Of a stretch of 64,000 nucleotides of DNA, positions 23,728 to 59,074 are shown one piece after another; position 1 is the stretch's first letter; each line of letters opens with the position of its first letter. Under the pieces are notes generated by a model. It was not told the origin of the DNA. It did not search any database and was given only the letters and a program-made list of their open reading frames with translations. Made by a program: the position numbers and the translations under genes. The DNA comes from a virus, in IMG/VR virus record IMGVR_UViG_3300042876_000418, positions 1 to 64,000 of that record; one strand, 5' to 3'.

Positions 23728-23755
23728 AAAAAGCCCCGGATAACCGAGGCTTTTC
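23728..23755 (-). terminator. Intrinsic terminator (bidirectional-looking)
   Basis: AAAAGCCTCGG-TTAT-CCGGGGCTTTTT. Confidence 0.75.
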
Positions 23756-24153
23756 TACAATGGAGAACTCAGGCCCGCGCAGGGCCGTAGACGTCAGATT
23801 ATATGGCCCTGTTGTAAATTTTCGCCGTGGGCCACCGTAGGGACTGGAGTAGGCGTCAGATGGGCGTCGATAAGCCTTTGCCATTTATCTTTTTCGGCCT
23901 GAGTGCGGGCCATGCGCTGGCCTAATTTCAGGCGGGCACATTCTCTACACACAATCAGAGTCGCGTGGTGTTGGATGGGTTTCATGATTATTATCCTCCT
24001 AGTCCGGCATAAACGAAACGCGAAATTCGGATAATCCAGGGGCACACCACGAGATGCACCACCATGCAAACCAGACAACTTTATATGTGCCGGATAGCTC
24101 GATTGAGAAATGGGGCGTCCAATTGTATATAGGCTTACAGTTTATTTTGTCCA

Positions 24154-39512: not shown

Positions 39513-42500
39513 TTATGCACCTAAAATTTGCATAGTCTGGAATCCCTGCCGGACGTTTTCGGCCTGCATCCGGGTTTGAAGGGTGAGGTTGTACTGATTC
39601 GTATTGATGTTTGAATACGTCTGCATCATCATACTTTGGGCTGAGGCAGGCGGGGATATACGTTGCTGATTGGCTACGATTCCAGTGCCACTACCGCCGC
39701 CGCCCGCCGATCTTGCCCATTCAAGCGCATCTGGAAGATTGACGATATTCTTGGAGTTGTTCCCCCAAATCCAGCCCCATAGTTTTTCGAGCGCCTTGAT
39801 AACATCGCCCACCCACGATGAAATGTTGTCGAATGCAGTTTTGAATGGGGATGCAATCGCGTTCCCGATTTCAATAGCCTTACCGGAGAACGAATCCCAC
39901 CAACCGCTGATTTTCGTTATGATTCCATCCGGTCCATTCCAAATATTAGTTGCAAACAGTTTTATTGCATTCCAACTGTTTTGAATGGTATCGCGGATAC
40001 TTTGGACCGGATTATTAGGACTGTCTACCCAACTTTGGAATGTATCCCATATCCCGGTAATTGTGCTTGTGATCCCGTTCCAAATTGTTTCCGCGCTACC
40101 TTTTACCGCGTTCCACGCCGTTTCGAGCGCCGTTTTTACCGCGCCCCAAACCGTGCTTGCCGCAGTCTCAACCCCGTCCCACGCCGTAATGACGGCTGTT
40201 TTGATCCCGCCCCACACCGTTTCCGCCGCCGTCTTGATCCCGCCCCAGATCGTCTCAAGGGAAGTCTTGACATTACCCCAGATCGTTTCGGCGGTAGTCT
40301 TGATCCCTGTCCAAATCGAACCAATCGCATCCTTGACTCCACCTAAGATCGTTTCGGCACTATTGCTAATGGAGTTCCATGCCGAAATAAGAGCGCTTTT
40401 TATTTCCGCCCATTTCTTATCGACTTCCGTAGCAATATCTTTCCACGCTTTGGTCACTTTAGCGTAGATACTGTTAGGCCCGGTGAAATAATCCACGGCC
40501 TTCGACTTGATTTTTTCCCAGACAGAAACGAGATTAGCTACAACTTTATTCCAGGCCGAAACCAGCGCGGTTCTGATTTTCTCCCACGCATCGGTGATAA
40601 CCTTTTTGATCGCGTCCCATGCTTTACCTGTAACTTCGTTGATTTTGTACCAGACTACAACCAGCGTTTTCACCAGGTCAATATTTTCAGCGTCGATCCC
40701 GATCTGTTTGAACGCGGCGCGAATCGGACGCCCGAATATTTCATCGAACTTTTCCCCGATTGACTCCCCGAAAATCTTACCTAAATCGTACTTACCGGGA
40801 TTCCTGAATATCTCTCCGATTACGTCACCAATACGAGAAGCAGTGTCCCGAATCCCCTGCCAGTTCTCAGACCACGCCTTGACGGAAAAAATGATCCCGC
40901 TGATGATAACGCCAATCGCGCCTAATCTCGTGAGCAGTGCGCCCGCGCCGGTAGCCCCGCCAATCGTCTGAAATACGGCACTTATTTTCGTCCCTACATT
41001 CAGGATGAACCCGATGGGCTTTGACGCTAACCATAAGATCGCAACCCACTTACCCGCTGCAATCACATTCTCGTTGAGCGCCTTGCCCATTTCGGTCATA
41101 CCATAGGTGGTCTGCCCGCCCTCGGGTAGCCCTTCGTCCTGGAAGCCGCCTTTTTTCTTTGCGCCGGGAGTCGTGGTCTTGGTCAGGATTCCCATCTCTA
41201 CCAGTAAATCCAATACCCGGTAAAGTTGTTTCTCGAATTCCTTGAATACCGGGACCACATGGGTATTGAAACTATCCGCGACTGGCTGGAAGATGGTCAA
41301 TAGCCGCTGCTTGAATTCGTCAATCTTATTCTGTAGACTCGTAACCGCGCCGCCGGCCTTCTCAAATGGGGCTGACGGGTTATTCTTGCCGCCTTCACCT
41401 TCGCCGGCCCCCGCGCCCTTGTACGCTTTGGTCATCTCAATCAGAGCGCTAACCAAATCTTGTTGTAATTTTACTTGCTTTTCAAGTGCATCGGCGTTTT
41501 TCTTTGCAACTTCAAGATTCTTTTCGTCCTCTTTGCGCTTGTCAACTGAGTTTTTATACGCATCTTTAGCTGCCTTGAATTCAGCCCGTTTCGCCGCCAG
41601 TTTCGCCGGGTCCTTCTCCGTTTGAGCCAACTTGTTGTACTCGTTGACCATATCGGTGATATTCTGCCCGGCCTCTTTTTCGGCTTCACGTGATTTTTCG
41701 AGCGCTTCCTCGGCAGCATTCACTTTCTCGGTAGCATCGGCTAATTGCAACTGTAAGCCAGCCAGCTTGCCAACTTCGCCGCCGTACTGCCCCAATTGGG
41801 CCTGGAGTTGCTTGATAAAATCATCCCCGCCGCCCCCGGACAGGGCCTTCGTCATACTGCCTGCCAGGTTCTTCCACATCGCGTCTTGACTCGCCGCGTC
41901 CCCACCCATCGCGGCAAGTGCGCTCTTGATCGTGCCGCCCAACGACGTGAATACCCCAAAATCAGCCTGAGTCATGCCGTCAAGGTAGGCGGTCATAGTT
42001 GACGCGCCCCACTTGTCGATGTCAGGCAGTAAGTTCGGTGGTGAATGGGCCTCCAGGAAATAACTAATCAGATCGCCAATCCCCTGCATGGATAGGGCCA
42101 GGACCGTGCCGGTGCCCTCTGCGATTCCGATGGCGAAGGACGAAATGAGGTTGAAGCCCCATTGGGCGGCCTGCCCAATCAGTGACGCGATTCCACTGAA
42201 CATCGGTCCTGAGAAGAAATTGATTAACGTATTGGCCGCCTCACCCGCGCCACCCTTGACGATATCGAAGAATGCGCCGAACGCCGCGCCGGTACTCTCC
42301 AGCATGGGAGCTAAACGACCGCCTGTGTTGAATGCGTCTGTAATCCGCTTTGTAAAGTCGGTAATCGCCTGACCGGCCATCATTGACGCCTTGAGGAATG
42401 GGGTGCCGAGGGTCAATTGTAGATCGTTGACCACCCGCTCGTAGCTGCCCCACACCTTAGACGCCGTACCTAATGACGCCTCATAGGAGCCGGCGGATTT

Positions 42501-43172
42501 CTTTCCCTCTTCCAATACCGCGTTCAATGTAGCCTGAGACCGCTCGGTATTGGTCAGTTGTTCGGATGATTTATTCAGGCTTTTGGCGTACTTATCGAAC
42601 GCCTGCTGCATGTTGATATTCAGGCCAGCAGTGCGGAATATCTCCGTATTATAGGTCTGAATACCGTACAGGAGTCGTTGTAGAGTCTCACTTGAGTTAC
42701 TACCCGACACCTGAGCTTGATCTTGGGCCACGCGGGCTAACTGGGTGCTCTTGGCTAAATCAAGATTGTAGCGGGAAAAGTTGATAACCAGATTCGCCGC
42801 CACCCCGGCCTCGATCCCGTACTTACGGATTGAGTTGACGTTCTGGTCAACCGACTCCGCCGTGGATCCGTTTTGTGCCGCCAGATTGTAAGCGACCTGC
42901 TGCAACTGCTCAAACTTAGACGCCACGTCAAGCGAACCACCGACCAGGGCGTCAATCTTCCCCACAACTTGATCTATCGCGCGGGTCAACTGCTGCCCGA
43001 GCGCGTTGTTCAGGATCATCTGAGCAGGGGAAAGGCGGTTGTTGATCGTATTGGTAAGACTGAGCATAGACTGATTTAGGCTAAGGGTACTTTGATTAGC
43101 CGCAGTCTGCCCGCTTTGAAAGGCAGATAACCCGTCCATTACCAGTCTTACGCCTACATCAACTAAACCCAT
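39513..43172 (-). CDS. Tail tape measure protein
   Basis: 1219 aa, Ala/Gly-rich helical, 11-aa Trp-periodic repeats, HSPP motif. Confidence 0.92.
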   Translation of the reverse strand: MGLVDVGVRLVMDGLSAFQSGQTAANQSTLSLNQSMLSLTNTINNRLSPAQMILNNALGQQLTRAIDQVVGKIDALVGGSLDVASKFEQLQQVAYNLAAQNGSTAESVDQNVNSIRKYGIEAGVAANLVINFSRYNLDLAKSTQLARVAQDQAQVSGSNSSETLQRLLYGIQTYNTEIFRTAGLNINMQQAFDKYAKSLNKSSEQLTNTERSQATLNAVLEEGKKSAGSYEASLGTASKVWGSYERVVNDLQLTLGTPFLKASMMAGQAITDFTKRITDAFNTGGRLAPMLESTGAAFGAFFDIVKGGAGEAANTLINFFSGPMFSGIASLIGQAAQWGFNLISSFAIGIAEGTGTVLALSMQGIGDLISYFLEAHSPPNLLPDIDKWGASTMTAYLDGMTQADFGVFTSLGGTIKSALAAMGGDAASQDAMWKNLAGSMTKALSGGGGDDFIKQLQAQLGQYGGEVGKLAGLQLQLADATEKVNAAEEALEKSREAEKEAGQNITDMVNEYNKLAQTEKDPAKLAAKRAEFKAAKDAYKNSVDKRKEDEKNLEVAKKNADALEKQVKLQQDLVSALIEMTKAYKGAGAGEGEGGKNNPSAPFEKAGGAVTSLQNKIDEFKQRLLTIFQPVADSFNTHVVPVFKEFEKQLYRVLDLLVEMGILTKTTTPGAKKKGGFQDEGLPEGGQTTYGMTEMGKALNENVIAAGKWVAILWLASKPIGFILNVGTKISAVFQTIGGATGAGALLTRLGAIGVIISGIIFSVKAWSENWQGIRDTASRIGDVIGEIFRNPGKYDLGKIFGESIGEKFDEIFGRPIRAAFKQIGIDAENIDLVKTLVVVWYKINEVTGKAWDAIKKVITDAWEKIRTALVSAWNKVVANLVSVWEKIKSKAVDYFTGPNSIYAKVTKAWKDIATEVDKKWAEIKSALISAWNSISNSAETILGGVKDAIGSIWTGIKTTAETIWGNVKTSLETIWGGIKTAAETVWGGIKTAVITAWDGVETAASTVWGAVKTALETAWNAVKGSAETIWNGITSTITGIWDTFQSWVDSPNNPVQSIRDTIQNSWNAIKLFATNIWNGPDGIITKISGWWDSFSGKAIEIGNAIASPFKTAFDNISSWVGDVIKALEKLWGWIWGNNSKNIVNLPDALEWARSAGGGGSGTGIVANQQRISPPASAQSMMMQTYSNINTNQYNLTLQTRMQAENVRQGFQTMQILGA

Positions 43173-43963: not shown

Positions 43964-45511
43964 TTACATCTTGACGGCGCTGCCAATTAGGAGGATACCG
44001 TCAGTGCCATTGCCAGCCAGCCCGGCCACGATAATGTTATTCGCGTCGGCTGAGGGGTCCGAGGTCACAGGGACAACCAGCCGCCCGGCCTTGTCGAAAG
44101 TGGGTAGATTGTTGATCCGGGGTGCCGAGTTGGTCCAATCCGCGCCACCGTTGAAGGTAGCGAAGATTCGCGCAGCCGGCCCGGTTGTGCTGTGGGACAC
44201 ATAGCCCACTTCATCGGTAGCGAAAGTAATGTCCCAGACGGTGCCGGTGCCAGAGCCTGAGAACGCCTTCTCTACCCAGGTCTTGCCACCGTTGAGGGTG
44301 TAGTACAGCTTGCCCCCGGTAGCGGTGCCAACCCAATAACGCAGATCGTCCATCACTGCTACCGCCTGAATGGTATTTGCCGCGTCTGGTGTTGCGACTG
44401 TGGTAGACCAGGTAATGCCGCGATTGATTGACTTGATAATCGTGCCGGTAGCACCCACGGCTACCAGGGTGTTTCTCGACTCATTGCCGTCAATCCGGTA
44501 CAAATCGTTGGTGGTAGCGTCACCCGCGCTCAGTACAGTAGCGCCACTCGGGACGTCGGTAATCTTGTAGATGTACCCGCCCGCCGCGGCGATGTACGCT
44601 TCATTCGAGTTGAAGACCACGATGTCATTGCCGGATTTACCGGAAACGAACCCGGTTGAAACTTTGGTGAATGCGCCGGGAATACCGGTATCGGTGTCAA
44701 TCTCAGCGTAGAAATACGCCTCGCTGCCCAGGATCACCAGGTAATTACCAATCAGGTCGATTGCCGTGATTACCTCAGCGGCCCCGAGTCCAGAGATGTC
44801 TACCGCGGTCCAGGTGGCCCCCTTGTTGACCGTGTAGTGTAGTTGTCCGGGCAGGCCCGGAGAACCAGCCCCGGACGGCGCGGTAATGGCATAAGCGCGA
44901 TTGGTACCATCATCTTGCTCACCGCACGACCCACACGATTCACGATTGGCGTAGACCGCGTCAACAACCTCGCGGTTGACCTGAGTCGCGGCCTTCTCCC
45001 CAAAACTAATCGCGCCGATGGGGTACACCTCACTCAGGATCACCGACACCCGAGTCTCAAGCGCTTCATCCGAGTCGAACGAGGTCCGCTGCCCGGCGTC
45101 TTTGTCGGTGACTTTCGCCCCGCTGTAGATCAAGACGTAATCTGACCAGCCGCGCTGAAAATCCGCCAGATCGCCGCAAACGCCGCTCACTTCGTAGAAG
45201 GTGAACGGGCATCCAATTTTGGTCAGAGGAAGGGGGATTGAGGCGTGTTTTTCGCGGAAAACTAACTCCGCCTTAGCCAGATCAGCCGGGGCAATCGTGG
45301 TCCCTGCCAGATGGAAGGTTTTGGCCCGCTTGCCAGGTACCCAGATCGGGGTGATTGAGCCGGATTCCGGAATGGTCAGGCCGTTGATAGACGCATACTG
45401 ACTGTTCTGCCCTGCGAATAGAACGGGGTTGTTTGGCCGGGCGGACCCAATCTGTATGTATACCCGCTTATTCTGTCGGGTAATCAATTCATCGTTTTTT
45501 AAGTCAGGCAT
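43964..45511 (-). CDS. Major tail tube protein with C-terminal BNR/beta-propeller domain
   Basis: Position; Asp-box repeats T.N.G.TW. Confidence 0.7.
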   Translation of the reverse strand: MPDLKNDELITRQNKRVYIQIGSARPNNPVLFAGQNSQYASINGLTIPESGSITPIWVPGKRAKTFHLAGTTIAPADLAKAELVFREKHASIPLPLTKIGCPFTFYEVSGVCGDLADFQRGWSDYVLIYSGAKVTDKDAGQRTSFDSDEALETRVSVILSEVYPIGAISFGEKAATQVNREVVDAVYANRESCGSCGEQDDGTNRAYAITAPSGAGSPGLPGQLHYTVNKGATWTAVDISGLGAAEVITAIDLIGNYLVILGSEAYFYAEIDTDTGIPGAFTKVSTGFVSGKSGNDIVVFNSNEAYIAAAGGYIYKITDVPSGATVLSAGDATTNDLYRIDGNESRNTLVAVGATGTIIKSINRGITWSTTVATPDAANTIQAVAVMDDLRYWVGTATGGKLYYTLNGGKTWVEKAFSGSGTGTVWDITFATDEVGYVSHSTTGPAARIFATFNGGADWTNSAPRINNLPTFDKAGRLVVPVTSDPSADANNIIVAGLAGNGTDGILLIGSAVKM

Positions 45512-45531
45512 CTTGTACTCCTTATCGAAAT

Positions 45532-45565
45532 AAAAACAGCCACTCCTAAGATTTAGGAGCGGCTG
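45532..45565 (-). terminator. Leader terminator before the tail tube gene
   Basis: CAGCCGCTCCTAA/TTAGGAGTGGCTG + TTTTT. Confidence 0.65.
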
Positions 45566-45666
45566 CCAAAGTCCGCCACGATTGGGATTCCAATCCGGCC
45601 TACGATTTCATTATAGCACAACTAGCAAAGCCGTTTCATAGTGTCAATTTATGACACTGTAAAACG

Positions 45667-46986
45667 TTAGGGCATATACGCCGTGAGTACCCGATTCGGC
45701 TTGACAAACTTCCATGCTTCCACCTGCCCGCGCCGCGTTCCGAACGGGTTGCCTAAATCCTCACGGCTGATGTACCCATAAGCTTCATCATTTGCGCCGG
45801 CGGAGCGGGCCAGATCGAACTGCCAGCGTGCAAGCTCACGGTTGGAGGAATCGCACGCGCAAATACGATTGGGCATTTCCGCCGCCGCCAGACGGCTTAC
45901 CGCGGTGGCATAGTTGGAACTCATGCGCCCGGATTTATCCAGGGGGAATCCCGCCAAATAACGCACAATCACACGATCCGGCTGCCTGAATTTGTAGATC
46001 GAAGAGTACCAGGGTACCGCGTCCCAGGCCCCGGTGGTGGCGTTGTAGCACGACTCCCCAATCCCCAATACGCCATTGACGCTATCGGTCAGAGTGGCCC
46101 GCCCAATCGCCCAGGCGTAGCCAGCCGGATCGGTTGACGCGAAAACAATATTGTAGTTGATCATGGGGTAAGGCGGGGTTTGCCAGATGAAGATCAATGA
46201 CGCATCGGCAAGGGTGGTGCCCTCGGTATAGGGATACCTCCAGCACACGTCAAGGGTAGAGGCGTAGTTAGTCGTGTCCGCCGCGTCAAGGGGATTGAGT
46301 GCCATCGATTCGTACAGGATGGGCTTGACCAGAAGCCACGCCGGGCCTGTGATTGTCAACACGCCGCCAGATAGGGACGTCCGAATTGGGGCGATACGCC
46401 ATCTTTCCTCGAAACTATCCCCGGTAAAACGATCCGCCGCGCTGAAGTACACCACGATCTGAGTGAGATCCACCAGTCCCACAGGGGCGTTGGCGGTCAC
46501 CGTGAATTTATCCACCAGCCCATCCCCATTGGCGTCACTGAGCGTCACGACTGAGGCCAGGCCCACCGCCACGATCTTCTCTACCCCCACCGTTTGAACG
46601 TGCTTATGCGGGACGTTGACAGTCAACCATCTATCGTTTGCCCCCGCATACCCCAAGCGGTGTACATCTACTTTCGGATAGGCCGGCCACGCCACGGTGT
46701 CCTCGCAGTAGCGCGGGGCCGGGTAGAATCCCAAGTGTGGCTCGATCCTTTCCTCCGCCGTCTGAATCGCGCTCCGAATCCCATGCCGCCCGACTACGTC
46801 CGCCTGTTGGTAGCCGTACTGAGGCACGATTGAGTTGCAGTTCGATGTTACCGGCACAATCTGCCCGCCCAAGCCCCAGAAGTGGTACGGGTGGTAGTTG
46901 ATCGAATCGCGCCACGATTCCAGCGGCAATAAATTCCAGTCAGGCAGGGGTGTTTGAATTATCGCGCCTACGCCAGTATTGGTCAT
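45667..46986 (-). CDS. Head-tail adaptor-like virion protein
   Basis: AEERIEPHLGFYPAP..VRYLAG..AVSRLAAA; position upstream of tail genes. Confidence 0.6.
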   Translation of the reverse strand: MTNTGVGAIIQTPLPDWNLLPLESWRDSINYHPYHFWGLGGQIVPVTSNCNSIVPQYGYQQADVVGRHGIRSAIQTAEERIEPHLGFYPAPRYCEDTVAWPAYPKVDVHRLGYAGANDRWLTVNVPHKHVQTVGVEKIVAVGLASVVTLSDANGDGLVDKFTVTANAPVGLVDLTQIVVYFSAADRFTGDSFEERWRIAPIRTSLSGGVLTITGPAWLLVKPILYESMALNPLDAADTTNYASTLDVCWRYPYTEGTTLADASLIFIWQTPPYPMINYNIVFASTDPAGYAWAIGRATLTDSVNGVLGIGESCYNATTGAWDAVPWYSSIYKFRQPDRVIVRYLAGFPLDKSGRMSSNYATAVSRLAAAEMPNRICACDSSNRELARWQFDLARSAGANDEAYGYISREDLGNPFGTRRGQVEAWKFVKPNRVLTAYMP

Positions 46987-46998
46987 GAAACCTCCAAC

Positions 46999-47020
46999 AA
47001 AAAACCCGCCATGAGGCGGG
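46999..47020 (-). terminator. Leader terminator
   Basis: CCCGCC-TCAT-GGCGGG-TTTTTT. Confidence 0.65.
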
Positions 47021-47089
47021 CGTCAATTCCGTAAGATTCCGGCTAACCGGTCAGACAGTTAGATTATAGCATATCTCGCAAATGACCCC

Positions 47090-47118
47090 TTGACAAGAAA
47101 CGTTTTACAGTGTAGAAT
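47090..47118 (+). promoter_or_regulatory. Sigma70 promoter of the inserted operon
   Basis: TTGACA-N17-TAGAAT. Confidence 0.75.
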
Positions 47119-47152
47119 AAATTATATCAGATTGACAGTTTCGGAGGGAGCA

Positions 47153-47359
47153 ATGACGGTAATCATTCACGTAATCGAGCGAACGGATAGCAAACCAGAG
47201 GGGCGGCTATTTGACGGTTGGATCGAAAACGGCTCCAACCTGGAAACTCAGCTTGTCGCTCAGTCTAGCCGCAACACAATCGCGTGGTGCTGCCGGGTAG
47301 AGAAGGCCGCTTTCATTCGCGGCTACGATTGCAGCCGGTCTATGGATTTACGGTTTTAG
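47153..47359 (+). CDS. Hypothetical protein
   Basis: GGAGGGAGCA-ATG. Confidence 0.55.
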   Translation: MTVIIHVIERTDSKPEGRLFDGWIENGSNLETQLVAQSSRNTIAWCCRVEKAAFIRGYDCSRSMDLRF

Positions 47360-47368
47360 GAGGAAATA

Positions 47369-47584
47369 ATGAAAATCAGCAAAGCAGTGGGCTCGTCGCC
47401 TTTCAAGGTGGTTGTCGTGAAACTTTCTGACGGAATCTACCAGGGGAAAGCGAGTGGATACGAGGTTGAAATCACGGAAGGGAAGTACACAGGCACCATT
47501 GTAAAAATGGCTAATGGGGTTCGTGGCATGAATATTCCTGCGACCATTACCGTTGAAAACGGGGATATCTCCATCACAATTTGA
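47369..47584 (+). CDS. Hypothetical small beta protein
   Basis: AGGAGG RBS. Confidence 0.65.
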   Translation: MKISKAVGSSPFKVVVVKLSDGIYQGKASGYEVEITEGKYTGTIVKMANGVRGMNIPATITVENGDISITI

Positions 47585-47607
47585 TGCGAATTTCAAAGGG
47601 AGCGATC

Positions 47608-47862
47608 ATGTAAAACATCACCATCAAAATCGTAATGCCGTTCGATAAGTTCAACACCCAAAAATCTACCGTCAACGAGCAGATTGGGATCGCCGCTGGA
47701 TCCGATGTCTACGCCACCGCGCGCGGCACGGCAAAGAAAATGATCCGCGCCCTCAATTCCCTACCGTAGGCGTGGGGGAATCTGTTCATCGAAGGCGGTC
47801 CGAGTTATCATATTTATAAGAATGCTGGAGTTTGGAAAGTGGAGGAATTGAAACATGCCTGA
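47608..47862 (+). pseudogene. 85-codon gene with two in-frame stops
   Basis: GGGAG RBS; ATG-TAA at codon 2; TAG at 47767; frame continues to TGA overlapping the next gene. Confidence 0.55.
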
Positions 47863-48223
47863 ATTCATGGTTGAATTATTTGACGGCTCCGAAAACGGGA
47901 TGGTTATCACCGACACGCAGCGCAAAGTCGGGTTAGCCAACTGCCTGCAAAATTCCGACTTCATCGCGCGGGCATGGAACCAAGCAAACGGAATCGGATT
48001 CATGATCGCGCCCGGATCGGTTGACGCCCGTGCCGCTGTGACTCGTGAGGTCGCACAGTTCTTTGGGTGGCACGTCACCACGCCGCCGAATTTCATCATG
48101 GTCAAAGCGATGGTAGCGGGCGGAGAGGTGATGACCGGGCAAAGAGAAGTTGAGCGGTTTCGGTTCGACAATGGCCTGTCGGTCATCCCGATTGAGAGTG
48201 TGGTGGCCTGGAGGGTATCATGA
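47855..48223 (+). CDS. Hypothetical protein
   Basis: GGAGG RBS. Confidence 0.6.
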   Translation: MPEFMVELFDGSENGMVITDTQRKVGLANCLQNSDFIARAWNQANGIGFMIAPGSVDARAAVTREVAQFFGWHVTTPPNFIMVKAMVAGGEVMTGQREVERFRFDNGLSVIPIESVVAWRVS

Positions 48224-48440
48224 TCTGGGAACGCCGTGATGGTTGGGTTATCCGCTACATTTATGCCTACGATCCATTTGGCCTGTCATCTCGCATGGAT
48301 GGACGCCGGGGTAGCGCCGGGCGTCACCGGGGCACTCCTGGAGTCCGCGACTCCGGTCGGGGCGGTGGGCGGTATACGAAACGATACGCCGATAAACGTA
48401 ATCGTCAACCGCGAAAGCGGAATTAGATAAGGGAGTAACG

Positions 48441-48761
48441 ATGAAAACACTGCAAGAATGTATTCGTGAGGACCAAGAAAGCCCCGCGTCCCAATTGATT
48501 AGCCGGATGGAACGCGAAACAGGCCAGCGGGTTGACGATCCTGGAAGTAACGCACTCGCCGGCCTGTTCGGTGCAATGGCGCGAATGATGGGTAAAACGA
48601 ATTACCCCCCCCAGGATGATGTGGTGGCGGGCCTGTTGATCCTGCATCAGATGACACCGGAATACCAGAACGATCAACGCAGTAAAGAAATGATCACAGG
48701 TATGCTTACCGCTGGAATGTCGCCCGATGATATCCGTGCCATGTTTGGGAAAGGTAGTTGA
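48441..48761 (+). CDS. Hypothetical protein
   Basis: AAGGGAG RBS. Confidence 0.6.
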   Translation: MKTLQECIREDQESPASQLISRMERETGQRVDDPGSNALAGLFGAMARMMGKTNYPPQDDVVAGLLILHQMTPEYQNDQRSKEMITGMLTAGMSPDDIRAMFGKGS

Positions 48762-48863
48762 CATCCTGCCCGCGTGGTGCTAATATAAAAACACCTCCTA
48801 ACGGTTTTTGAGCCTGAGTTCCATTCTCCACGGAAAGACCCCGACACGACGCGGGGTCTTTCT
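48758..48863 (+). ncRNA. Small RNA gene A (anti-SD CACCUCCU)
   Basis: TTGACA-N17-TAATAT; ~70 nt; terminator GAAAGACCCCG/CGGGGTCTTTC. Confidence 0.65.
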
Positions 48864-48868
48864 CGTTA

Positions 48869-48975
48869 TTGACAATCTGATTGTGTCGTGCTAAACTGAA
48901 TGCACTCCCTTAGTGCTGCTCCACCCCATTCTTGCCCCACGAAAGAGCGCCGCCCACCCCGGCGCTCTTTCAATT
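48869..48975 (+). ncRNA. Small RNA gene B (C-rich)
   Basis: TTGACA-N17-TAAACT; ~70 nt; terminator GAAAGAGCGCCG/CGGCGCTCTTTC. Confidence 0.65.
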
Positions 48976-49293
48976 TCACGTCCGATACAGCGTCAAGTGA
49001 AGCATGATCGTAACGCACGACAACGCCGCCCCGATCACGCCCCACTCTACGATTCCCGCCAGGGTAAACGAAAACGGGAACATCAGTGCCGCCGCGATCA
49101 AGCCCAGCCAGAACGACTGGCAGATTGGGCAACGTGAAAATTCGGCCTGCCACGATTTATAACCGTAACGCGCGATTAGCCATTCCCGCGCTCGGTCAAA
49201 GATAGCGAACGGCCCGGTCATCACTGCGAATGCATGGGCGAAGGTGTAGACTGCCAGTGCCGTGATGATAAACCTCACTGTGAAGTTGTCCAT
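48976..49293 (-). CDS. DUF1360-like membrane protein
   Basis: GPFAIFDRAR..CPICQSFW, TM helices. Confidence 0.7.
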   Translation of the reverse strand: MDNFTVRFIITALAVYTFAHAFAVMTGPFAIFDRAREWLIARYGYKSWQAEFSRCPICQSFWLGLIAAALMFPFSFTLAGIVEWGVIGAALSCVTIMLHLTLYRT

Positions 49294-52214
49294 TATTTCG
49301 CCTTACGGGTGCCGCGTTTGGGGGCTGAGGTAGGCTCTGCCGGGGTGACAGTCGCGGGTTTGACTGGTTCGGGTGGCTTGACAGGCTCCGGCTCCGGGAT
49401 CTTATCCACCACCTTCGCTAACGGACGCTCGAACACCTTTTCTTGATCTTTCCACATTTCATCAAACTCCGCACGCGCCTTCATAATAGCGTCCTGCGCT
49501 TGCTGAGGGGTGATGGGCGCGGGTTCTGGGGCTGGGGTGGGCATAGTTACCGGCGCAGCCTGTTGCACTGCCTGAGCGGGCGGGGGAGGCGTGGGGCGCG
49601 ATACGACCCGGAATAACTCGGTACGCATCAACTCGTTTACGTCCTCGGGCAGGCAGTCCACAAAGCGCTCAAACTGATTGTTGCCCGCGCGGTACTGATG
49701 ACCATTGGCGACAAACGTTCTGGCCCCAACCGTGGTGCCGGTGAACTCAAGGCGCACTTTAGACGCCGGCGGGGTGGATGGTACATACTGGATATCTTCC
49801 TGGTTGCCCCCGGCCCGTTTCGCTTTCAGAATTTCATTGGCGGCTTCACTGCCACCACAAGATGCACATGGACTCATTGTCTTTTCTCCTGTGAAGTAAC
49901 TCCCGTAACGTTCGCTCAGAACAGCCAGGATCCGCGATCCTTGATCGTTCGTAGTTCCGTCCGGGTTGATAGCTTTCATTCTGCGGAAGCCAGAGCCTAA
50001 CCGGTAAATCAATAGTGGCTCTGCAATCCGCTTTCCACAAACGCCGCGCGTCGCCAGATTGAGGAATAACTCCCAATCCTCCCACGACTCCAACTCTTCA
50101 TCGAAAGGATATTGCTTCATCGTTTCTGTTGGAATCAGCACCGAAACCGGGTGGTACATTTTCCACTCGTTGCGGTTCGGCTCTCCCGCCTCTCCCGTTG
50201 TCCACTTCCCTTTATCCAGCGCCAGCCAATCCGAGTACACATACCCGCCGTCAAAAGCCGCAGTCATCTTCTCCAGGCAGGTTGCGTCAAGTAGATCGTC
50301 AACGTCAAGAAAGAACACCAACGGCGCACGGGCCGCGCGTATCCCAATGTTTCGCGCTACGCCGGCCCCGCCACGTCTGCTCTTGTTGTCGATCACCCTT
50401 GCGAATGGGTAGCAAGATGGAATCTCTAGTTTATGCCCGGTGTCGTTGACAATCACGACTTCCCATGGGTAAAACGTCTGCCCGAGCAGGGTATCCACCG
50501 CGCTGGACACGTAACCCTCATGCCCAGGCCCTACCGGAACAATCACACTTACCGCCGGCTGGACATTGGCCCGCACCAACGGACGCGCCACGGGTGCCCC
50601 CATCGGATAATTCTTGCTTACCATCCAAGGATTTCCAACCTCAATCGAACGGTAAACCTTCGTTCTTGACGCCGATCCCTCATGACCGCGGTAAAGGAAC
50701 AGTGGATCTGACGTCACCTTTTTGGCCCGGAATCCAACCGATAACCCGCGCGTCCAAAATTCCGCATCCTCACCTGGCGCGTACTCCTGTTTGTACCCAC
50801 CTGCCCGTCGCCACATTTCGCGCCGAAACATACAGGCTGAGGGGATGCAGTTGGAGGGAGGATTGCTTACCGCCGATTGAATCTTCCAATCGAAGTTAGG
50901 CGGCCAATGTGATACCGATTGTATGTCCCCGTCCGGGTTGGTGATAGCCAGGCCAGAATAAGCGATTCCCAATCCGCGATCACCCGCTAACGCCGGCTGT
51001 AGCACCTGAATGAAGCGCTTATCCAGACGATCATCCGCGTCAAGACTGACGATGAATTCAGCCTTTGCCGCCGCGATCCCATTATTCCGCGCCCCGGCTA
51101 CCCCGGTATTAGTCTGATAGATTCCGGTGAATGCGATTCCCGCGCTTCTAACTTTATCTTCCATCCCTTGAATCGCCACCACACTATCATCCGTTGACCC
51201 GTCATCTACCACGATCAACTCAGCGGGCTTCACTGCCTGGCTGATGACACTATCTATCGCCGCGCCCACCCAACCCGCGTAATTGTGGCATGTGATTACC
51301 ACCGCCACGTCGTGCCGCTGTGGGTAGCGGGCGATCACATCGAACAGGCGGGCATACCGTTCCATCACGCGCGGCCACGTGTAGCGCTCCGCTGTAGCCC
51401 GCGCCCCGGCAGATAGGGCCGCACGATTCGCGCGGATGTACTCCACCCCTTCCACCAGACCCGCCACGTCGCCCGGCTTGACCAGGTACCCGGACTCGCC
51501 GTGCTTGACAATATCCGAAGTGCCGCCCCAATCCCACCCGAGTACCGGAATCCCACACGCCATTGCTTCAAGAGTCCCGATTCCGAAGGTCTCCATCGTG
51601 GTAGCAAGGTAGATGTCTGCCCCCGCAATAATCCCTTTCATCTGCTCAAACGGGATATTGCCGGTCAGGCGCATGGAGTCGGGTACGGGCAGTTTGTCAG
51701 GGGAGAAGGTAGACGTAACCTTGATTCCTCTATTCGCTAACTCCCATGCTGGTTGAGATTGACACACATCCCCCTCACGATTCTTGTTGTAGAGGATGTA
51801 ACCCCCATTTTCGCCCGGTCTGAATTCGTCAAGCTCAATCCCGTGGGGAATCACCACCGGGTTGAAGCGCATATCACGCCGGAAAGGCTCACCTACCCAC
51901 GAGGAAGGCACGGTCACGGCGATAGACTGGCGCACGGATTCGACAATGCTGCCGTTAGCATCGTGGTGCCAGGCTGAAAATTGATTGTGGGGGGTATCTT
52001 GCCAGTATAGCCCGTGTACCATCGTCAAGTCGATTCGGGGCCAATACGAAGGTTTGCCGATATGGGCCGCGTACACGTCCACATTGTCGCCCGGTTCTGA
52101 TATCAGATCAATTCCTAATCCAGGTAGATATTTCCATTGCGCCAATACCACCTGGCCTATGCCGGTATTCCGGGTAACTTGATCAGGGGACAGGCTAAGG
52201 CAAACTTTCATCAT
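49293..52214 (-). CDS. Multi-domain glycosyltransferase (GT4 + GT2 + GT2) with C-terminal Pro-rich extension
   Basis: ETFGIGTLEAMACG; VVDDGSTD..ARNNG..LDADD; VIVP..ARNIG..LDVDD. Confidence 0.9.
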   Translation of the reverse strand: MMKVCLSLSPDQVTRNTGIGQVVLAQWKYLPGLGIDLISEPGDNVDVYAAHIGKPSYWPRIDLTMVHGLYWQDTPHNQFSAWHHDANGSIVESVRQSIAVTVPSSWVGEPFRRDMRFNPVVIPHGIELDEFRPGENGGYILYNKNREGDVCQSQPAWELANRGIKVTSTFSPDKLPVPDSMRLTGNIPFEQMKGIIAGADIYLATTMETFGIGTLEAMACGIPVLGWDWGGTSDIVKHGESGYLVKPGDVAGLVEGVEYIRANRAALSAGARATAERYTWPRVMERYARLFDVIARYPQRHDVAVVITCHNYAGWVGAAIDSVISQAVKPAELIVVDDGSTDDSVVAIQGMEDKVRSAGIAFTGIYQTNTGVAGARNNGIAAAKAEFIVSLDADDRLDKRFIQVLQPALAGDRGLGIAYSGLAITNPDGDIQSVSHWPPNFDWKIQSAVSNPPSNCIPSACMFRREMWRRAGGYKQEYAPGEDAEFWTRGLSVGFRAKKVTSDPLFLYRGHEGSASRTKVYRSIEVGNPWMVSKNYPMGAPVARPLVRANVQPAVSVIVPVGPGHEGYVSSAVDTLLGQTFYPWEVVIVNDTGHKLEIPSCYPFARVIDNKSRRGGAGVARNIGIRAARAPLVFFLDVDDLLDATCLEKMTAAFDGGYVYSDWLALDKGKWTTGEAGEPNRNEWKMYHPVSVLIPTETMKQYPFDEELESWEDWELFLNLATRGVCGKRIAEPLLIYRLGSGFRRMKAINPDGTTNDQGSRILAVLSERYGSYFTGEKTMSPCASCGGSEAANEILKAKRAGGNQEDIQYVPSTPPASKVRLEFTGTTVGARTFVANGHQYRAGNNQFERFVDCLPEDVNELMRTELFRVVSRPTPPPPAQAVQQAAPVTMPTPAPEPAPITPQQAQDAIMKARAEFDEMWKDQEKVFERPLAKVVDKIPEPEPVKPPEPVKPATVTPAEPTSAPKRGTRKAK

Positions 52215-52774
52215 TTCGCCTTTCGCGTCACCATCGTGGTGTCAACCAGATAGACAAATTCCAGTTTTCCCGATCCGATCCATTCGTCAATCACGCGCTT
52301 TACATCCGCCCAATTGATGGAGTCGTAATCATGGAAGGCCATGAAGCCCCCTGGTTTGAGGTGGGGGTACCATGCCTCAATATCCCCACGGCAGCCAGCT
52401 TCACTATGATCCGCGTCAATAAAGATGCAATCCGCTTTCGGCCCGGCATAATCACGCCCGGCTTTATGACTGTCACTGTGGATCTGCTTTGGGTAGGGCA
52501 GCCCGGCTTGATCGAAGGCATTGCGCTCGTTGCCCAGGCCACCGAACGGGTTGCCCTCGTTGGTGATATCCACGGTGGTGAGATTAAGCCCGCGCCCGGC
52601 TTCAGCAAAGCACAGGCCCGAGGTACCGAACCCCGCGCCCACGTTGATCACCACCCCGCCCTCCGGGACCATCGCGGCAAGGGTATACATGCCGAAGCAT
52701 TCAATATCATGCAGCATTCCGAACGCCTTGCTCAGTTCAAAGGCTTGATAGGTCTTCATAGGCTTATACGACAT
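52211..52774 (-). CDS. Class I SAM methyltransferase (Methyltransf_24-like)
   Basis: NVGAGFGTS, FIDADH, LKPGG..HDY. Confidence 0.85.
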   Translation of the reverse strand: MSYKPMKTYQAFELSKAFGMLHDIECFGMYTLAAMVPEGGVVINVGAGFGTSGLCFAEAGRGLNLTTVDITNEGNPFGGLGNERNAFDQAGLPYPKQIHSDSHKAGRDYAGPKADCIFIDADHSEAGCRGDIEAWYPHLKPGGFMAFHDYDSINWADVKRVIDEWIGSGKLEFVYLVDTTMVTRKAK

Positions 52775-53477
52775 AATTCAAACTCTCCAGTTCTTGATAA
52801 TCTTGATTGCTCAATTGCCGCGCCGGGTTCATCCAATCGCCGCCGCGCTCAAACTTACCGCCCCGCACCATGATCTGATATTGAAGCGGCCATTGACGGG
52901 TTCCGAATACCCGCAACTGCGGGAATTCATCCTTCAGCCGCGATCCCCCTGCGATCTCGCATTGCCAGGGGTCCCAATTGGAATGGAGCAGGGCCGAAAG
53001 GTGATCTGCATTCCATATGGATGCCTGGAAGCTCACCTGATACGGACTCTCTAACCCCTCTATGATATCCACCCGCCCAATCGCCCCCACCGGCGCGATA
53101 TTGCCGGAATACAGGCGATCCGTGGTGATGTCGAATCGTAGCGCGTTGGGGTTGCTCTGCATGAATTCAGTGCACACCCCAAGCGCCCAGATATCAGCCC
53201 GCCGGGTTAGCCAGTAGTCCTCCAGCAGAATCGCAACGTGCCCGCCTGCGTAGCCCCTGAGCAGTTCCTTTAGCGCGTTACTCCACTTCCCAATCGGATA
53301 ATTCGCCATGTCACCGATTGAGACGAAATCAAATCCTTCCAGTAGATCGAACTGAGGCTGACGGAATCCAGCGATTGTGACCGGAATCTCAGGCGCGTAT
53401 TTGCGCCACTGGTGCATAAAGCCGGGAATCATATGGTCGTGCTTATCAGACGTAAGGCAGATGTAAGGAATGGTCAT
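52764..53477 (-). CDS. Glycosyltransferase-like (GT-A fold) protein
   Basis: KWSNAL..LLEDYWL..QASIW..PWQCE; leaderless start. Confidence 0.6.
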   Translation of the reverse strand: MTIPYICLTSDKHDHMIPGFMHQWRKYAPEIPVTIAGFRQPQFDLLEGFDFVSIGDMANYPIGKWSNALKELLRGYAGGHVAILLEDYWLTRRADIWALGVCTEFMQSNPNALRFDITTDRLYSGNIAPVGAIGRVDIIEGLESPYQVSFQASIWNADHLSALLHSNWDPWQCEIAGGSRLKDEFPQLRVFGTRQWPLQYQIMVRGGKFERGGDWMNPARQLSNQDYQELESLNYVV

Positions 53478-53543
53478 GATTTGATTATATCACGATGGAC
53501 AACCGCTTGACTTTTAGTGTATTACGATGTAGAATAAGTGTCA

Positions 53544-53651
53544 TACAGATTGAGCGCGGCAGAAACGCAATGTTGAAACCTGCGTTTTACAACCATAGCG
53601 GACAACCGCTGTGATAGCGATCCCTGGTTAAAGCATGGCGCTCAATCTGTA
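53544..53651 (+). ncRNA. Multi-branched structured RNA
   Basis: 14-bp closing stem TACAGATTGAGCGC/GCGCTCAATCTGTA with internal hairpins; promoter TTGACT-N17-TAGAAT at 53507-53535. Confidence 0.6.
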
Positions 53652-53677
53652 ACTTTCTGAATGTTCTGGAGGGAACA

Positions 53678-53947
53678 ATGACGCGATTAGAGGCTTTACG
53701 AGCAGCAAAAGACGCCGGATTTACCCATGCGGTTTTGCACCCATACACGTATCACGCCCGGACGATTGAATCGCATATCCAGGAGGCGCAAACCGGGCAG
53801 AATGATATCTCTTATCCAGGATCAAGCGCCGCGTCCGAAGTGTGGACTTTCGACGTAAACGAAAATGCAGTTAACGGAGACAGCGCGTGGTACTCTCTTT
53901 CTATCAAAGATGCCGCCGTGTTTGATAATTCTGGAGGGAACGAATGA
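53678..53947 (+). CDS. Hypothetical protein
   Basis: GGAGGGAACA-ATG. Confidence 0.65.
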   Translation: MTRLEALRAAKDAGFTHAVLHPYTYHARTIESHIQEAQTGQNDISYPGSSAASEVWTFDVNENAVNGDSAWYSLSIKDAAVFDNSGGNE

Positions 53948-54489
53948 GTTACGACATCGACACAGGAACAATAACGCACGAATGCTCCGGGTGCGGAGCG
54001 GTTTTTTCTATTGGGCCGAAAGAAAGTTTCACCGTGTTTTGCCCGGTATGCACAGAGAAGCGCGAAACGACTAGCCGCAAACTTTCTTTGCGGAGTTATT
54101 TGAATGCGCTGAAAGTTCAACGTCAAAAGATCGTAGACGGGAAAAAGCTATCCGGCTTCGATGACACGACCGTCGGGGATAAGGACACTCAAGTGACTTG
54201 GGGTATGTGCCACGAAGATCCCGACTTATTCCCAGACCCAGAAGATCATCGCTGGCCTTACGAATTTAAATCAAGAGGAAGATACGCGCCGAAAAGTATG
54301 CCCCATAGATGCCCATTTCGACGTGTTCCCAGATTCAACAAGGGCGAAGTCGATAAAACATCGCCTGATGGGTGCTTTTATGAGTGCGCGTTTTTCAGGG
54401 GGCAAAAGCCTCAAAAAGAGCAGGCGTTAGCATGGTATGACGAAATTATCCTTGAAGTAGAAGCAAGAATATCAAAGGGGGAGTCGTAA
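53944..54489 (+). CDS. Zn-binding hypothetical protein
   Basis: CSGC..CPVC; further Cys. Confidence 0.65.
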   Translation: MSYDIDTGTITHECSGCGAVFSIGPKESFTVFCPVCTEKRETTSRKLSLRSYLNALKVQRQKIVDGKKLSGFDDTTVGDKDTQVTWGMCHEDPDLFPDPEDHRWPYEFKSRGRYAPKSMPHRCPFRRVPRFNKGEVDKTSPDGCFYECAFFRGQKPQKEQALAWYDEIILEVEARISKGES

Positions 54490-55292
54490 TGCTTGACGAT
54501 AAGATTATCAGCCGTCAAACTGTATCCGGCATGGTGGGCGCGTACAAACAAGCCTGTGACGAAATAGACCGCGGTTATGCCCTGCTCTGGCAGGCCCAAC
54601 AGCGCTTGGTAGCGGCATTCTCGGATAAGTACAGCACGTTTACGGTGATCAACGATCATCACCACCGTCTGGAAGGCGAGGAAGCGCGAATCGCAAAGTT
54701 GCGGATTCGCAAGGCCGCGTGGCGTCAAGTCATATCCCTGCTCGAAATTCACAAAGTCATGACTGCGAAGGCATGGGACGATATGATTGAAAAGTTGAAT
54801 AGCGATAGCGTGCCCGAGCTAACCGAGGAAGAGGTATTCAGCACGTTAGAGACGCTACGCCAGAATGCCAGGGAATACGCCAAAGCCGCGATCATTGAGA
54901 CTTACAATTTCCTAATGCGTGGTCAGGATGATTGGAATCGGCACAAAACCAACACAAAAAACGCCCGGCGCTCCCTGGGAGAAAAGATAATTATCCCTGG
55001 GATATTGGAACACGACTACGGTGAGGGTATGCGCGTCAAGTCTTATTATGATAACGACGTGGTCGGAATCGACAAGGTGTTTTCGGCCCTTGACGGTTGC
55101 GGCATTCCAGACGGCTATAAATCGCCCCTGGTCGATGCAATCAATACCAGCAAGGGCGCGATGGGCGGATCGACCACTTATTTTTCGTTTCGTTGCCACC
55201 ACAACGGGAACCTTCATCTTGTTTTCAAGCGCATGGATCTGGTTGACCTGCTCAATCGCAAAGCGGGCTATAGCGGGAAATTACCTGATTGA
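54489..55292 (+). CDS. DUF4942-domain protein
   Basis: IDKVFSALDG..YFSFRCHHNGNLHLVFKRMDLV. Confidence 0.75.
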   Translation: MLDDKIISRQTVSGMVGAYKQACDEIDRGYALLWQAQQRLVAAFSDKYSTFTVINDHHHRLEGEEARIAKLRIRKAAWRQVISLLEIHKVMTAKAWDDMIEKLNSDSVPELTEEEVFSTLETLRQNAREYAKAAIIETYNFLMRGQDDWNRHKTNTKNARRSLGEKIIIPGILEHDYGEGMRVKSYYDNDVVGIDKVFSALDGCGIPDGYKSPLVDAINTSKGAMGGSTTYFSFRCHHNGNLHLVFKRMDLVDLLNRKAGYSGKLPD

Positions 55293-57926: not shown

Positions 57927-58012
57927 CAAACTCCGCCGAAGGGGCGGCGGAGTCCGATCTACTTGTGCGCATGGCACATAGGGCTAAGTAGATTATAGCA
58001 CTTGGAGGATGG

Positions 58013-58222
58013 ATGGGAAAACCAACTTTAGCGCAATATCTAGCGATTCAATCGGCTTATGATTATTGCGTTTCGGCTGAAGGCATGGAAGGCGGAAAGC
58101 ACGCAACGCTAATCACTGTTTTAGGGGACGCCGGAATCAGAACAAATTCAAGGGAGCAGGCATTCAAAGCCGCTCGCAAAATTTTGAAGGGAGATTGGCG
58201 TGACGAAAAAACAGAACGGTAA
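58013..58222 (+). CDS. Hypothetical protein
   Basis: GGAGG RBS. Confidence 0.55.
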   Translation: MGKPTLAQYLAIQSAYDYCVSAEGMEGGKHATLITVLGDAGIRTNSREQAFKAARKILKGDWRDEKTER

Positions 58223-58559: not shown

Positions 58560-58911
58560 AACCACGACAATGAACGAATGGGATTTATGCTCTGACTACA
58601 TCCCAAAACGCGGGGATATCGTCAAGAGCCATGTAGGTGTGGGAGTCGTGGTGGATGTGTACACCAGCCATGACACCGGGCGGATTCTGTTAGAGATCCA
58701 CTATGCCAAGAACGCCGCTCAAGGTCAACGCCCTGAATTCTCACCGTTGGGGCTGATGCAAGGAATTGATCTTGCCCCGGCCACTACCGAGGAATTCCAG
58801 GCGGAAATGAAATTGATCTTCAAGCGCCGGACAAAACAGTACCGCGCTAAAGTCAAAGAACTGCTGGCCTACGCCGGAATGGAGCCGATCCGTGTTAATT
58901 CCTGTCTCTAA
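58552..58911 (+). CDS. Hypothetical protein, paralog 2
   Basis: PKRGDI..VGVVVD.Y.S.DTG. Confidence 0.65.
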   Translation: MGRTTTMNEWDLCSDYIPKRGDIVKSHVGVGVVVDVYTSHDTGRILLEIHYAKNAAQGQRPEFSPLGLMQGIDLAPATTEEFQAEMKLIFKRRTKQYRAKVKELLAYAGMEPIRVNSCL

Positions 58912-59074
58912 AGTCCTCCCCAATCCCGAGCAACCCCGCCGCAAATTCGACAAAACCCAACTGCGCGAATTGGCGGATAGTATTCTGATTCATGGTGTGC
59001 TTACACCGATATTAGTTTACAAGGTAGGGGATAACTACGTGCTGAAGGACGGCGAACGTAGACTCCGGGCGTGA
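58892..59074 (+). pseudogene. parB: Truncated ParB N-terminal domain
   Basis: PNPEQPRRKF..LADSI..GVLTPILV..DGERRLRA*; the stop is created by the TnpB right end. Confidence 0.8.

Follow-up and report, generated by a model that had tools for sequence, protein, structure and literature searches.

Tandem promoter–terminator units between convergent operons of a soil phage: candidate small RNA genes with anti-Shine–Dalgarno-like 5′ ends

Results

Layout of the locus

Our study examined two short, gene-less units, here called A and B, which stand in tandem on the plus strand of a phage genome held as IMG/VR virus record IMGVR_UViG_3300042876_000418. The stretch analysed (the window) comprises positions 1 to 64,000 of this 89,961-bp record. 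A coding-potential gene map, which contained 134 genes and covered 94 % of the genome, was empty at 48762–48975, a 214-bp gap between convergent genes, and units A and B occupy this gap exactly, without overlap of coding sequence. On the left the gap adjoins the gene of a 106-aa protein, the last of a six-gene plus-strand island, and the TGA stop of this gene falls within the −35 element of unit A. On the right, terminator B extends with its tail as far as the stop codon of the oncoming gene, which encodes a 105-aa predicted membrane protein. The coordinates of the units, their parts and their neighbours are listed in Table 1.

Table 1. Features of units A and B and of the flanking operons (SD, Shine–Dalgarno sequence; transcription starts, promoters and terminators are predicted)
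Feature	Position	Strand	Description
Unit A	48758–48868	+	Promoter-to-terminator unit, gene-less
Promoter A	48758–48786	+	TTGACA 48758–48763, N17 ending in TGC (TG of an extended −10), TAATAT 48781–48786
Body of RNA A	48793–48832	+	Predicted start near A48793; 5′ end ACCUCCUAACGG; UUCCAUUCUCCACG directly before the hairpin
Terminator A	48833–48870	+	Hairpin 48833–48862, 11-bp perfect stem, arms GAAAGACCCCG/CGGGGTCTTTC, 8-nt loop ACACGACG; then UCGUUAUU
Unit B	48869–48979	+	Promoter-to-terminator unit, gene-less
Promoter B	48869–48897	+	TTGACA 48869–48874, N17 ending in TGC, TAAACT 48892–48897
Body of RNA B	48904–48940	+	Predicted start near A48904; 5′ end ACUCCCUUAGUG; CCCCAUUCUUGCCCCAC directly before the hairpin
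Terminator B	48941–48979	+	Hairpin 48941–48971, 12-bp perfect stem, arms GAAAGAGCGCCG/CGGCGCTCTTTC, 7-nt loop CCCACCC; then AAUUUCAC
Six-gene island	47153–48761	+	Ends at unit A
Island promoter	47090–47118	+	TTGACA-N17-TAGAAT (perfect −35); drives the six-gene island
71-aa protein gene	47369–47584	+	Second gene of the island; SD UUAGGAGG
106-aa protein gene	48441–48761	+	Last gene of the island; SD UAAGGGAGU at 48428–48436; ETGQR motif
105-aa predicted membrane protein gene	48976–49293	−	phrog_781 (E 1.5e-5); last gene of its operon
Minus-strand operon	53477–48976	−	237-aa gene, methyltransferase, 973-aa glycosyltransferase, 105-aa membrane protein

Anatomy of the two units

A preliminary description, made from the sequence alone, had proposed two architecturally matched units of the form TTGACA-N17(TGC)-TAANNT, some 40 nt of further sequence and a GAAAGA...TCTTTC hairpin, and this was borne out in full. 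The two promoters lie 111 bp apart on the same strand, the −35 element of promoter B begins 6 nt past the stem of hairpin A, and the distance from the −10 element to the hairpin is 46 nt in A and 43 nt in B. Both hairpins follow the GAAAGA...TCTTTC pattern, with stems of 11–12 bp. With transcription starts placed at predicted positions by the usual 7-nt rule, the predicted RNAs are about 76 nt (A) and 72 nt (B) long.

Each RNA, in its minimum free energy (MFE) fold, has 9–10 unpaired nucleotides at the 5′ end and is dominated by the 3′ hairpin (A, −26.5 kcal/mol, z −3.25; B, −25.0 kcal/mol, z −7.46). The bodies had also been described as C-rich, which fits B (18 C in 37 nt; 49 % C and 11 % G) and does not fit A (13 C and 13 U in 40 nt; 33 % C and 65 % pyrimidine). 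Neither predicted RNA contains an AUG, and the body of A also lacks a GUG. The one open reading frame (ORF) with an ATG start nearby, of 35 aa from 48900, opens before the predicted start of B and continues across the terminator, and the opposite strand of the units holds only mini-ORFs of 8 and 12 codons behind the terminators, without a promoter. As predicted, A and B have the generic layout of trans-acting small RNA genes, with their own promoter and intrinsic terminator, a unit of 50–300 nt and no translatable ORF.

Two further sequence matches were seen at the locus. The spacer of promoter A (48769–48779), which only read-through from the island would transcribe, is complementary over 11 nt (91 %) to positions 48845–48855 in the loop and the 3′ arm of hairpin A; this could be an alternative pairing in the long transcript but is probably due to chance. 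A 20-nt direct repeat (75 %) at 48921 and 49026 is probably also chance. Readings of the locus as a replication origin or attP were considered as well, and no AT-rich stretch or iterons pointed to either.

Rarity of the anatomy

Both components of the units are scarce in this phage, as only 10 perfect TTGACA-N16–18-TAnnnT sites were found on both strands of the 89,961-bp genome, together with 12 perfect GC-rich hairpins of at least 9 bp. A strict scan for a promoter followed by a hairpin within 15–100 nt returned four units in the genome, compared to none in each of 30 dinucleotide shuffles. On account of this rarity, and of the scan against shuffles, the promoters and terminators were treated as selected features. 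Furthermore, a 44-nt degenerate pattern spanning the −35 element, TGC, the −10 element and the first transcribed bases matched A and B only in the window and matched none of 100 shuffles. The anatomy of the units is real and not a product of chance.

The preliminary description had further claimed anti-Shine–Dalgarno (anti-SD)-like 5′ ends, and here too the sequence agreed, as both predicted starts coincide with a pentamer of this type, which the MFE folds leave unpaired. CCTCC or CTCCC occurs just after the −10 element in 2 of the 33 predicted promoters of the genome, namely A and B; genome-wide, either pentamer is present in only 1.0 % of 12-nt windows. In the RNAs these pentamers are CCUCC (A) and CUCCC (B), which mimic the anti-SD core of the ribosome.

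The hairpins were also considered from the opposite strand. The A-tract and U-tract of terminator A are symmetric, and both hairpins are flanked by GAAA...UUUC and fold equally well on the minus strand, and hairpin A can also stop minus-strand transcripts. Among the hits of the strict scan the U content after the hairpin was higher on the plus strand than on the minus strand, so the hairpins are expected to terminate the small RNAs better than they do the opposing operon.

Similarity between A and B

Alignment of the whole units scored far above shuffles (z 6.9), owing to the promoter, the CCATTCT..CCACG.GAAAGA stretch and the hairpin arms. The bodies of about 40 nt were not significantly alike when taken alone (p 0.33), nor were the spacer interiors (p 0.23), whereas the 51 nt preceding the hairpins gave p 0.03 when aligned locally. 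The proposal that the pair arose by duplication of a cassette is weak, with the whole-unit similarity in its favour and the bodies not. The inner stems of the two hairpins differ with full compensation, although two sequences are too few to call covariation, and a MAFFT alignment set the hairpins one column out of register.

A third sequence, at 23746–23796 (−), aligned locally with A (p 0.007), with GCCTGAGT..TCCATT in common. It lies in a short unit before a terminator (23728–23800, −), the promoter of which consists of TATAAT without a good −35 element, and this unit is possibly a paralogue of A that has diverged. Either shared ancestry or a shared constraint on the 3′ part of the body is likely, the 5′-proximal and middle sequence being free.

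Complementarity to translation initiation regions

Three targets had been named for the RNAs, and the complementarities exist. The match at 14132–14140 spans the start codon of an RNase H gene (Pfam), that at 48428–48436 is the SD of the gene at 48441, to which RNA B is exactly complementary with its first 9 nt, and that at 2080–2089 lies 8–17 nt upstream of the start at 2072. Measured by exact 9-mers and duplex energies against shuffled RNAs, they are at the level expected by chance.

Pairing was quantified over the 134 initiation regions of the phage itself, each taken from −25 to +12. Exact 9-mers of A were found in two regions (shuffle mean 0.94, with 22 % of shuffles reaching two) and those of B likewise in two (mean 0.74, 18 %). 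Matches of 8 nt were found in seven regions for A and four for B, numbers reached by 12 and 34 % of shuffles, respectively. The mean duplex energy over all regions was matched or beaten by 17 of 60 shuffled versions of A and by 12 of 60 of B. These RNAduplex energies, calculated for the full body, mainly reflected long-loop artefacts and were not different from shuffles, and blastn-short gave dozens of equally long matches for each unit (E 7–29).

For the first 16 nt of B, the longest exact match is 9 nt long and unique among the 134 regions, and corresponds to the SD of the adjacent 106-aa gene. For the first 16 nt of A it is 8 nt long, at the SD of the 71-aa gene at 47369, tied with the gene at 10625–11344. 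The longest 5′-seed matches of both RNAs fall in the six-gene island, for which a post-hoc chance of about 0.005 was estimated. When duplex energy was calculated with bulges and G–U pairs, the pairs with the 106-aa gene (B) and the 71-aa gene (A) ranked 5th and 8th of 134. As this lead to targets in the adjacent island was post hoc and was not upheld by the energy ranking, it was rejected as a finding. The SDs of the homologues of the 106-aa gene vary and are uninformative on the target.

Database searches and relatives

The units were described as a mini-array, of which longer versions might be found in relatives. No other copy was found in the IMG/VR, Joint Genome Institute (JGI) metagenome, phage, plasmid or Escherichia coli collections, and the term is unsupported. 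Longer arrays were absent wherever they were searched for, including five distantly related records, although this is weak evidence because the phage has no close relatives. In IMG/VR, the promoter–spacer pattern had no match, and single-protein scans with either flanking protein returned nothing beyond the record itself. CCATTCT..CCACG.AAAGA occurred in IMG/VR at 27 loci, all without promoter and hairpin, and these matches were judged to be chance. The 44-nt promoter and anti-SD pattern was not found in JGI metagenomes, and blastn of the units against GenBank phages, plasmids and E. coli genomes gave no match.

Rfam returned no hits at gathering scores over the whole window, and the families whose gathering threshold A and B did not reach include RsaE, C4, the CRISPR-DR repeats, 6S and transfer-messenger RNA (tmRNA). 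When E values of up to 10 were allowed, five sub-threshold hits appeared, mainly on the terminator hairpins (the best at 19.1 bits against a gathering score of 40), and none was to a CRISPR-repeat model, a protein-binding RNA family or a phage antisense RNA family. No genes for tRNA or tmRNA were found.

The 106-aa protein, whose conservation by far exceeds that of the remaining genome, belongs with small phage proteins that share an invariant E.ETGQR..L.GA..R..DD..G core. Homologues with 47–63 % identity were located in 11 IMG/VR loci and on one metagenome-assembled genome (MAG) contig, of 4 kb and labelled Gammaproteobacteria, and the sequence downstream of the homologue in these 12 places held other genes and no such units. 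Four of the records with a homologue, taken whole, had only 22 of the 134 proteins in common with the phage, mostly at 24–46 % identity.

Other cassettes and hairpins

The two remaining hits of the strict scan differ in their setting. One, at 5848–5754 (−) within the region 5745–5848, consists of TTGACA-N17(TGC)-TATCCT, 41 nt, a 9-bp hairpin and a UUUUU tract. A second promoter, TTGACT-N17-TATAAT, comes 3 nt further on, and after it a 74-aa gene; the cassette has no anti-SD at its start. The other, at 58019–57930 (−), is antisense inside a plus-strand operon.

Promoters of the form TGCTATAAT without a −35 element, each with a structured leader and then an intrinsic terminator behind it, were seen at 45512–45618, 46987–47071 and 57930–58019 and at genome positions 76171–76265 and 88371–88456, all on the minus strand. 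Four of these five units precede a ribosome-binding site (RBS) and a virion gene, and the set looks like a terminator-gated late-gene system. Membership of A and B in this late set (TGCTATAAT ... CGGA-N1–2-TTGRC-hairpin-RBS-gene) was considered and rejected, as both marks are absent from them and no plus-strand gene follows.

At the other convergent junction of the genome, outside the window, a bidirectional hairpin (69332–69358) repeats the arms of hairpin B (AAAGAGCGCC/GGCGCTCTTT), with no promoter or body in front. Two distant records contained cassettes of related form. That of record G002 (20699–20603, −) is analogous, with a CU-rich stretch followed by a second promoter and a gene with almost no leader; by eye, without a family search, the N-terminus of this gene product looks like an Arc/CopG-type regulator. 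In record G005 (54862–54958, −) the CU-rich body of the cassette is the antisense of the SD and start of a plus-strand gene, which indicates that pyrimidine-rich bodies can have trivial causes. Such an explanation is not applicable to A and B, because the strand opposite them carries nothing beyond the two promoterless mini-ORFs.

The phage and the genes around the units

The same phage was found on a 99,694-bp contig from a rhizosphere metagenome run, and the 89,961-bp virus record is therefore incomplete. The runs listed for the phage were two DNA runs and no RNA run. The contigs of these two were identical to the window over 44000–54000, without variants, joints or ends, and thus offered no microdiversity or covariation. 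The phage is tailed and an orphan, with a genome of about 90–100 kb that includes a tape-measure gene (39513–43172), several DNA methylases, ThyX, RNase H (Pfam), a DnaB-like helicase, a primase and two TnpB genes; a tyrosine-recombinase match was marginal (27.7 bits).

The 106-aa and 71-aa proteins matched no known family. None of the island proteins matched a Pfam, PHROG or NCBIfam family, and their Atlas structure matches all had template-modelling (TM) scores of 0.5 or less. ACGTTTTACAGTG, within the spacer of the island promoter, is found again at about 45650 in a divergent region (45640–45670) and may be an operator common to two promoters. The first gene of the minus-strand operon (52764–53477) lacks an SD, and 7 nt separate its start from an extended −10 of sequence TGATATAAT (53478–53540, −), so its mRNA is probably leaderless. 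The TnpB genes lie at 14643–15821 (−) and 59081–60235 (−). The nearest homologues of the first are metagenome proteins with 83–84 % identity, and an Anaerolineales MAG has a homologue at 53 %. A ParB_N match at 58898–59089, with one in-frame TGA, adjoins the second.

Discussion

Our study suggests, as a tentative explanation held at somewhat below even confidence, that A and B are two stand-alone small RNAs of the phage (‘RNA morons’), which act in trans and target purine-rich ribosome-binding regions by pairing. The parts of this explanation differ in strength. The promoters and terminators, the lack of a usable ORF and the unpaired 5′ ends are read from the sequence. Transcription of the units is probable, and pairing with ribosome-binding regions as the mechanism, once transcription is granted, is an evenly balanced question. 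The RNA, rather than the act of transcription, would be the product. A host sigma-70-type RNA polymerase would read A and B from strong promoters with a perfect −35 and an extended −10, and each unit would be halted by its own intrinsic terminator, to yield non-coding RNAs of about 76 and 72 nt with a mostly unpaired, pyrimidine-rich 5′ part of about 40 nt and a 3′ terminator hairpin. These RNAs may then act in trans via base pairing, in which the 5′-terminal CCUCC of A or CUCCC of B, possibly together with the common CCAUUCU, would anneal to purine-rich sequence at the SD or start codon of mRNAs from phage or host and keep the 30S subunit from binding. In favour of this explanation are the quality and rarity of the promoters and terminators, the exact fit into the gap, the free 5′ ends and strong hairpins of the MFE folds, the pentamers at the predicted starts and the occurrence of similar cassettes at 5848–5754 (−) and in record G002. 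The interpretation offered in the preliminary description is partly supported, in that RNA genes with anti-SD ends are plausible, whereas its named targets are not supported.

Several results weigh against this explanation. Pairing to the 134 initiation regions of the phage itself is no better than that of shuffled RNAs. The dissimilarity of the two bodies leaves a common scaffold weakly defined, and the short, interrupted U-tracts (UCUUUC...) make both the efficiency of termination and binding by Hfq uncertain. No relative close enough to judge conservation was found: the 105-aa neighbour had no homologue among 5.8 billion proteins, and the 68 homologues of the 106-aa neighbour share 47–68 % identity with it, the nearest being at 68 %. 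The five distantly related phage records held no counterpart of the units, with matches of only 12–19 nt (E ≥0.18).

A more specific form of the idea would see A and B as programmable copies of the mRNA-docking tail of the ribosome, each tuned to the SD of one island gene. RNA A (CCUCCUAA) would be directed to UUAGGAGG of the 71-aa gene and RNA B (ACUCCCUUA) to the unusual UAAGGGAGU of the 106-aa gene, as an RNA-controlled module (a translational timer or a lock similar to a type I toxin–antitoxin system) that arose by duplication of a promoter–seed–terminator cassette and a change of seed. In such a lock the RNA antitoxin would pair with the initiation region of an adjacent gene whose protein would be toxic; B is complementary to 9 nt of the SD of the 106-aa gene and A to 8 nt of that of the 71-aa gene, pairings that rank only 5th and 8th of 134 by duplex energy. 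We regard this elaboration as improbable.

The strongest alternative, which we nevertheless consider unlikely, is an element that works at the level of transcription, namely a reinforced insulator in which two bidirectional terminators stop both operons while the promoters fire short transcripts at incoming minus-strand polymerases (by interference or as a roadblock) or act as polymerase sinks, the RNAs being by-products. The position of the units exactly between the convergent operons 47153–48761 (+) and 53477–48976 (−), the symmetric GAAA...UUUC flanks and equal minus-strand folding of the hairpins, the similar hairpin at the convergent junction at 69332 and the fact that no target stands out are all consistent with it. 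However, terminators alone would suffice for such a purpose, and the 69332 junction indeed has one hairpin and no promoter; since neither promoter nor body is present there, those at A and B represent an addition rather than a by-product of a junction terminator. Nor would an insulator account for the anti-SD pentamers at the two starts, a feature of 2 in 33 promoters, or for an unpaired body of about 40 nt between promoter and hairpin. The absence of an enriched mRNA target would equally suit RNAs that are real but bind protein, as a decoy or sponge for a host RNA-binding factor (e.g. Rho or Hfq/ProQ) or a defence protein, with CCAUUCU..CCACG and the hairpin as handle. Rho loading sites are C-rich and G-poor, which the unstructured body of B resembles, and the handle draws on the common CCATTCT..CCACG.GAAAGA just 5′ of the two hairpins and on the GCCTGAGT..TCCATT that A shares with the third unit at 23746–23796 (−), with p values of 0.03 and 0.007 for the respective local alignments. 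Against this, the body of A is not C-rich, Rho sites are usually longer than 40 nt, the U-tails suit Hfq poorly, and neither a protein-binding RNA nor a CRISPR repeat model of Rfam was hit at E values of up to 10. A role as protein decoy is on balance slightly less probable again.

The presence elsewhere in the genome of promoter, short leader and terminator units ahead of genes (45618–45512, 47071–46987 and 5848–5754, all −), which have the (G)TGCTA start of the −10 region in common with A and B, raises the further prospect that the pair are leftover or redundant cassettes without a role in trans. They would be either leaders that have lost their downstream gene or terminators read through by a phage antiterminator to give antisense RNA into the minus-strand operon. 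Yet TGCTATAAT has three matches in the window and CGGA-N1–2-TTGRC has four, none of them at A or B, both of which have a perfect −35, unlike those units, and no plus-strand coding sequence lies downstream for about 4.7 kb; this reading has a small probability, a little below that of a protein decoy. Finally, the terminators could be functional and the promoter-like sequences fortuitous and inactive, since a match to consensus is no proof of activity, which would depend on the sigma-factor preferences of the host. Coincidence is very improbable in view of the common 44-nt pattern (0 of 100 shuffles), the cassette scan (four observed against none in 30 shuffles) and the regular arrangement of two same-strand promoters 111 bp apart, each 43–46 nt from its hairpin.

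Comparison with known systems

Trans-acting RNAs that occlude ribosome-binding regions, our preferred explanation for A and B, have precedents in phages. Lambda OOP and P22 sar are phage antisense RNAs of the kind that blocks an RBS in trans or in cis. Phage small RNAs that block RBSs are an established kind, represented by the c4 RNA of P1/P7 (PMC12197685). A and B resemble the c4 type as short (about 70–80 nt) phage RNAs with their own predicted promoter and terminator hairpin, for which occlusion of an RBS is proposed. The first 9 nt of RNA B, moreover, complement the SD of a gene 470 nt upstream, and c4, on the same account, acts on a nearby gene. They differ from c4, OOP and sar in their complementarity of only 8–9 nt, in the lack of overlap with a target gene and in their tandem arrangement. 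They are further set apart by the absence of an Rfam match to such RNAs at E values of up to 10 and by a target match that is not significant genome-wide.

Outside phages, the C-rich or CU-rich RNAs RsaE/RoxS of Firmicutes target SD sequences. The cuckoo RNA family of Alphaproteobacteria is described as two to four adjacent hairpins with CCUCCUCCC in each loop (PMC4615179). With both groups A and B would share a pyrimidine-rich, anti-SD-like motif in accessible RNA and a presumed occlusion of purine-rich initiation regions. In contrast to the cuckoo RNAs as so described, the motif of A and B is predicted at a free 5′ end, the single hairpin is the terminator, and the loops are ACACGACG and CCCACCC. 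CCUCCUCCC is itself absent from A and B, which have CCUCCUAA and CUCCCUUA, respectively, and are phage-borne.

Stand-alone small RNA genes are also known from phages and prophages, such as lambda LPR1/PreS (bioRxiv 10.1101/2024.10.31.621285) and DicF and AsxR (PMC12197685), as far as these sources report on them. These are non-coding phage genes with their own expression signals that are thought to regulate host or phage mRNAs, as is proposed for A and B. According to the same reports their transcripts and targets are mapped and they work with Hfq in E. coli, whereas A and B are known from sequence alone and without homology. The tandem arrangement and the 5′-terminal anti-SD are features of A and B and not, in those descriptions, of LPR1/PreS, DicF or AsxR. 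In lambdoid phages, the short PR′–tR′ transcript (6S RNA/StxS) stems from a strong constitutive promoter with an intrinsic terminator tens of nucleotides later and is subject to Q antitermination. A and B are alike in having a predicted strong promoter and a terminator after tens of nucleotides. PR′–tR′, however, precedes a same-strand late operon, while A and B face opposite-strand genes (48976–53477), such that read-through would give antisense RNA only.

By sequence and predicted structure, A and B belong to none of these systems. A limited full-text literature search found no paper on tandem phage small RNAs with 5′-terminal anti-SD seeds. To our knowledge, few phage non-coding RNAs have been characterized, and nearly all of these are from phages of E. 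coli, Salmonella or Staphylococcus. The locus is one more candidate for a pooled experimental test and not a discovery in itself; its simple form, with a strong predicted promoter, a 5′-terminal anti-SD seed and a terminator, makes it easily tested by cloning. If expressed, A and B would add to the known phage RNAs a pair that is novel in sequence, from a soil phage without a cultured relative.

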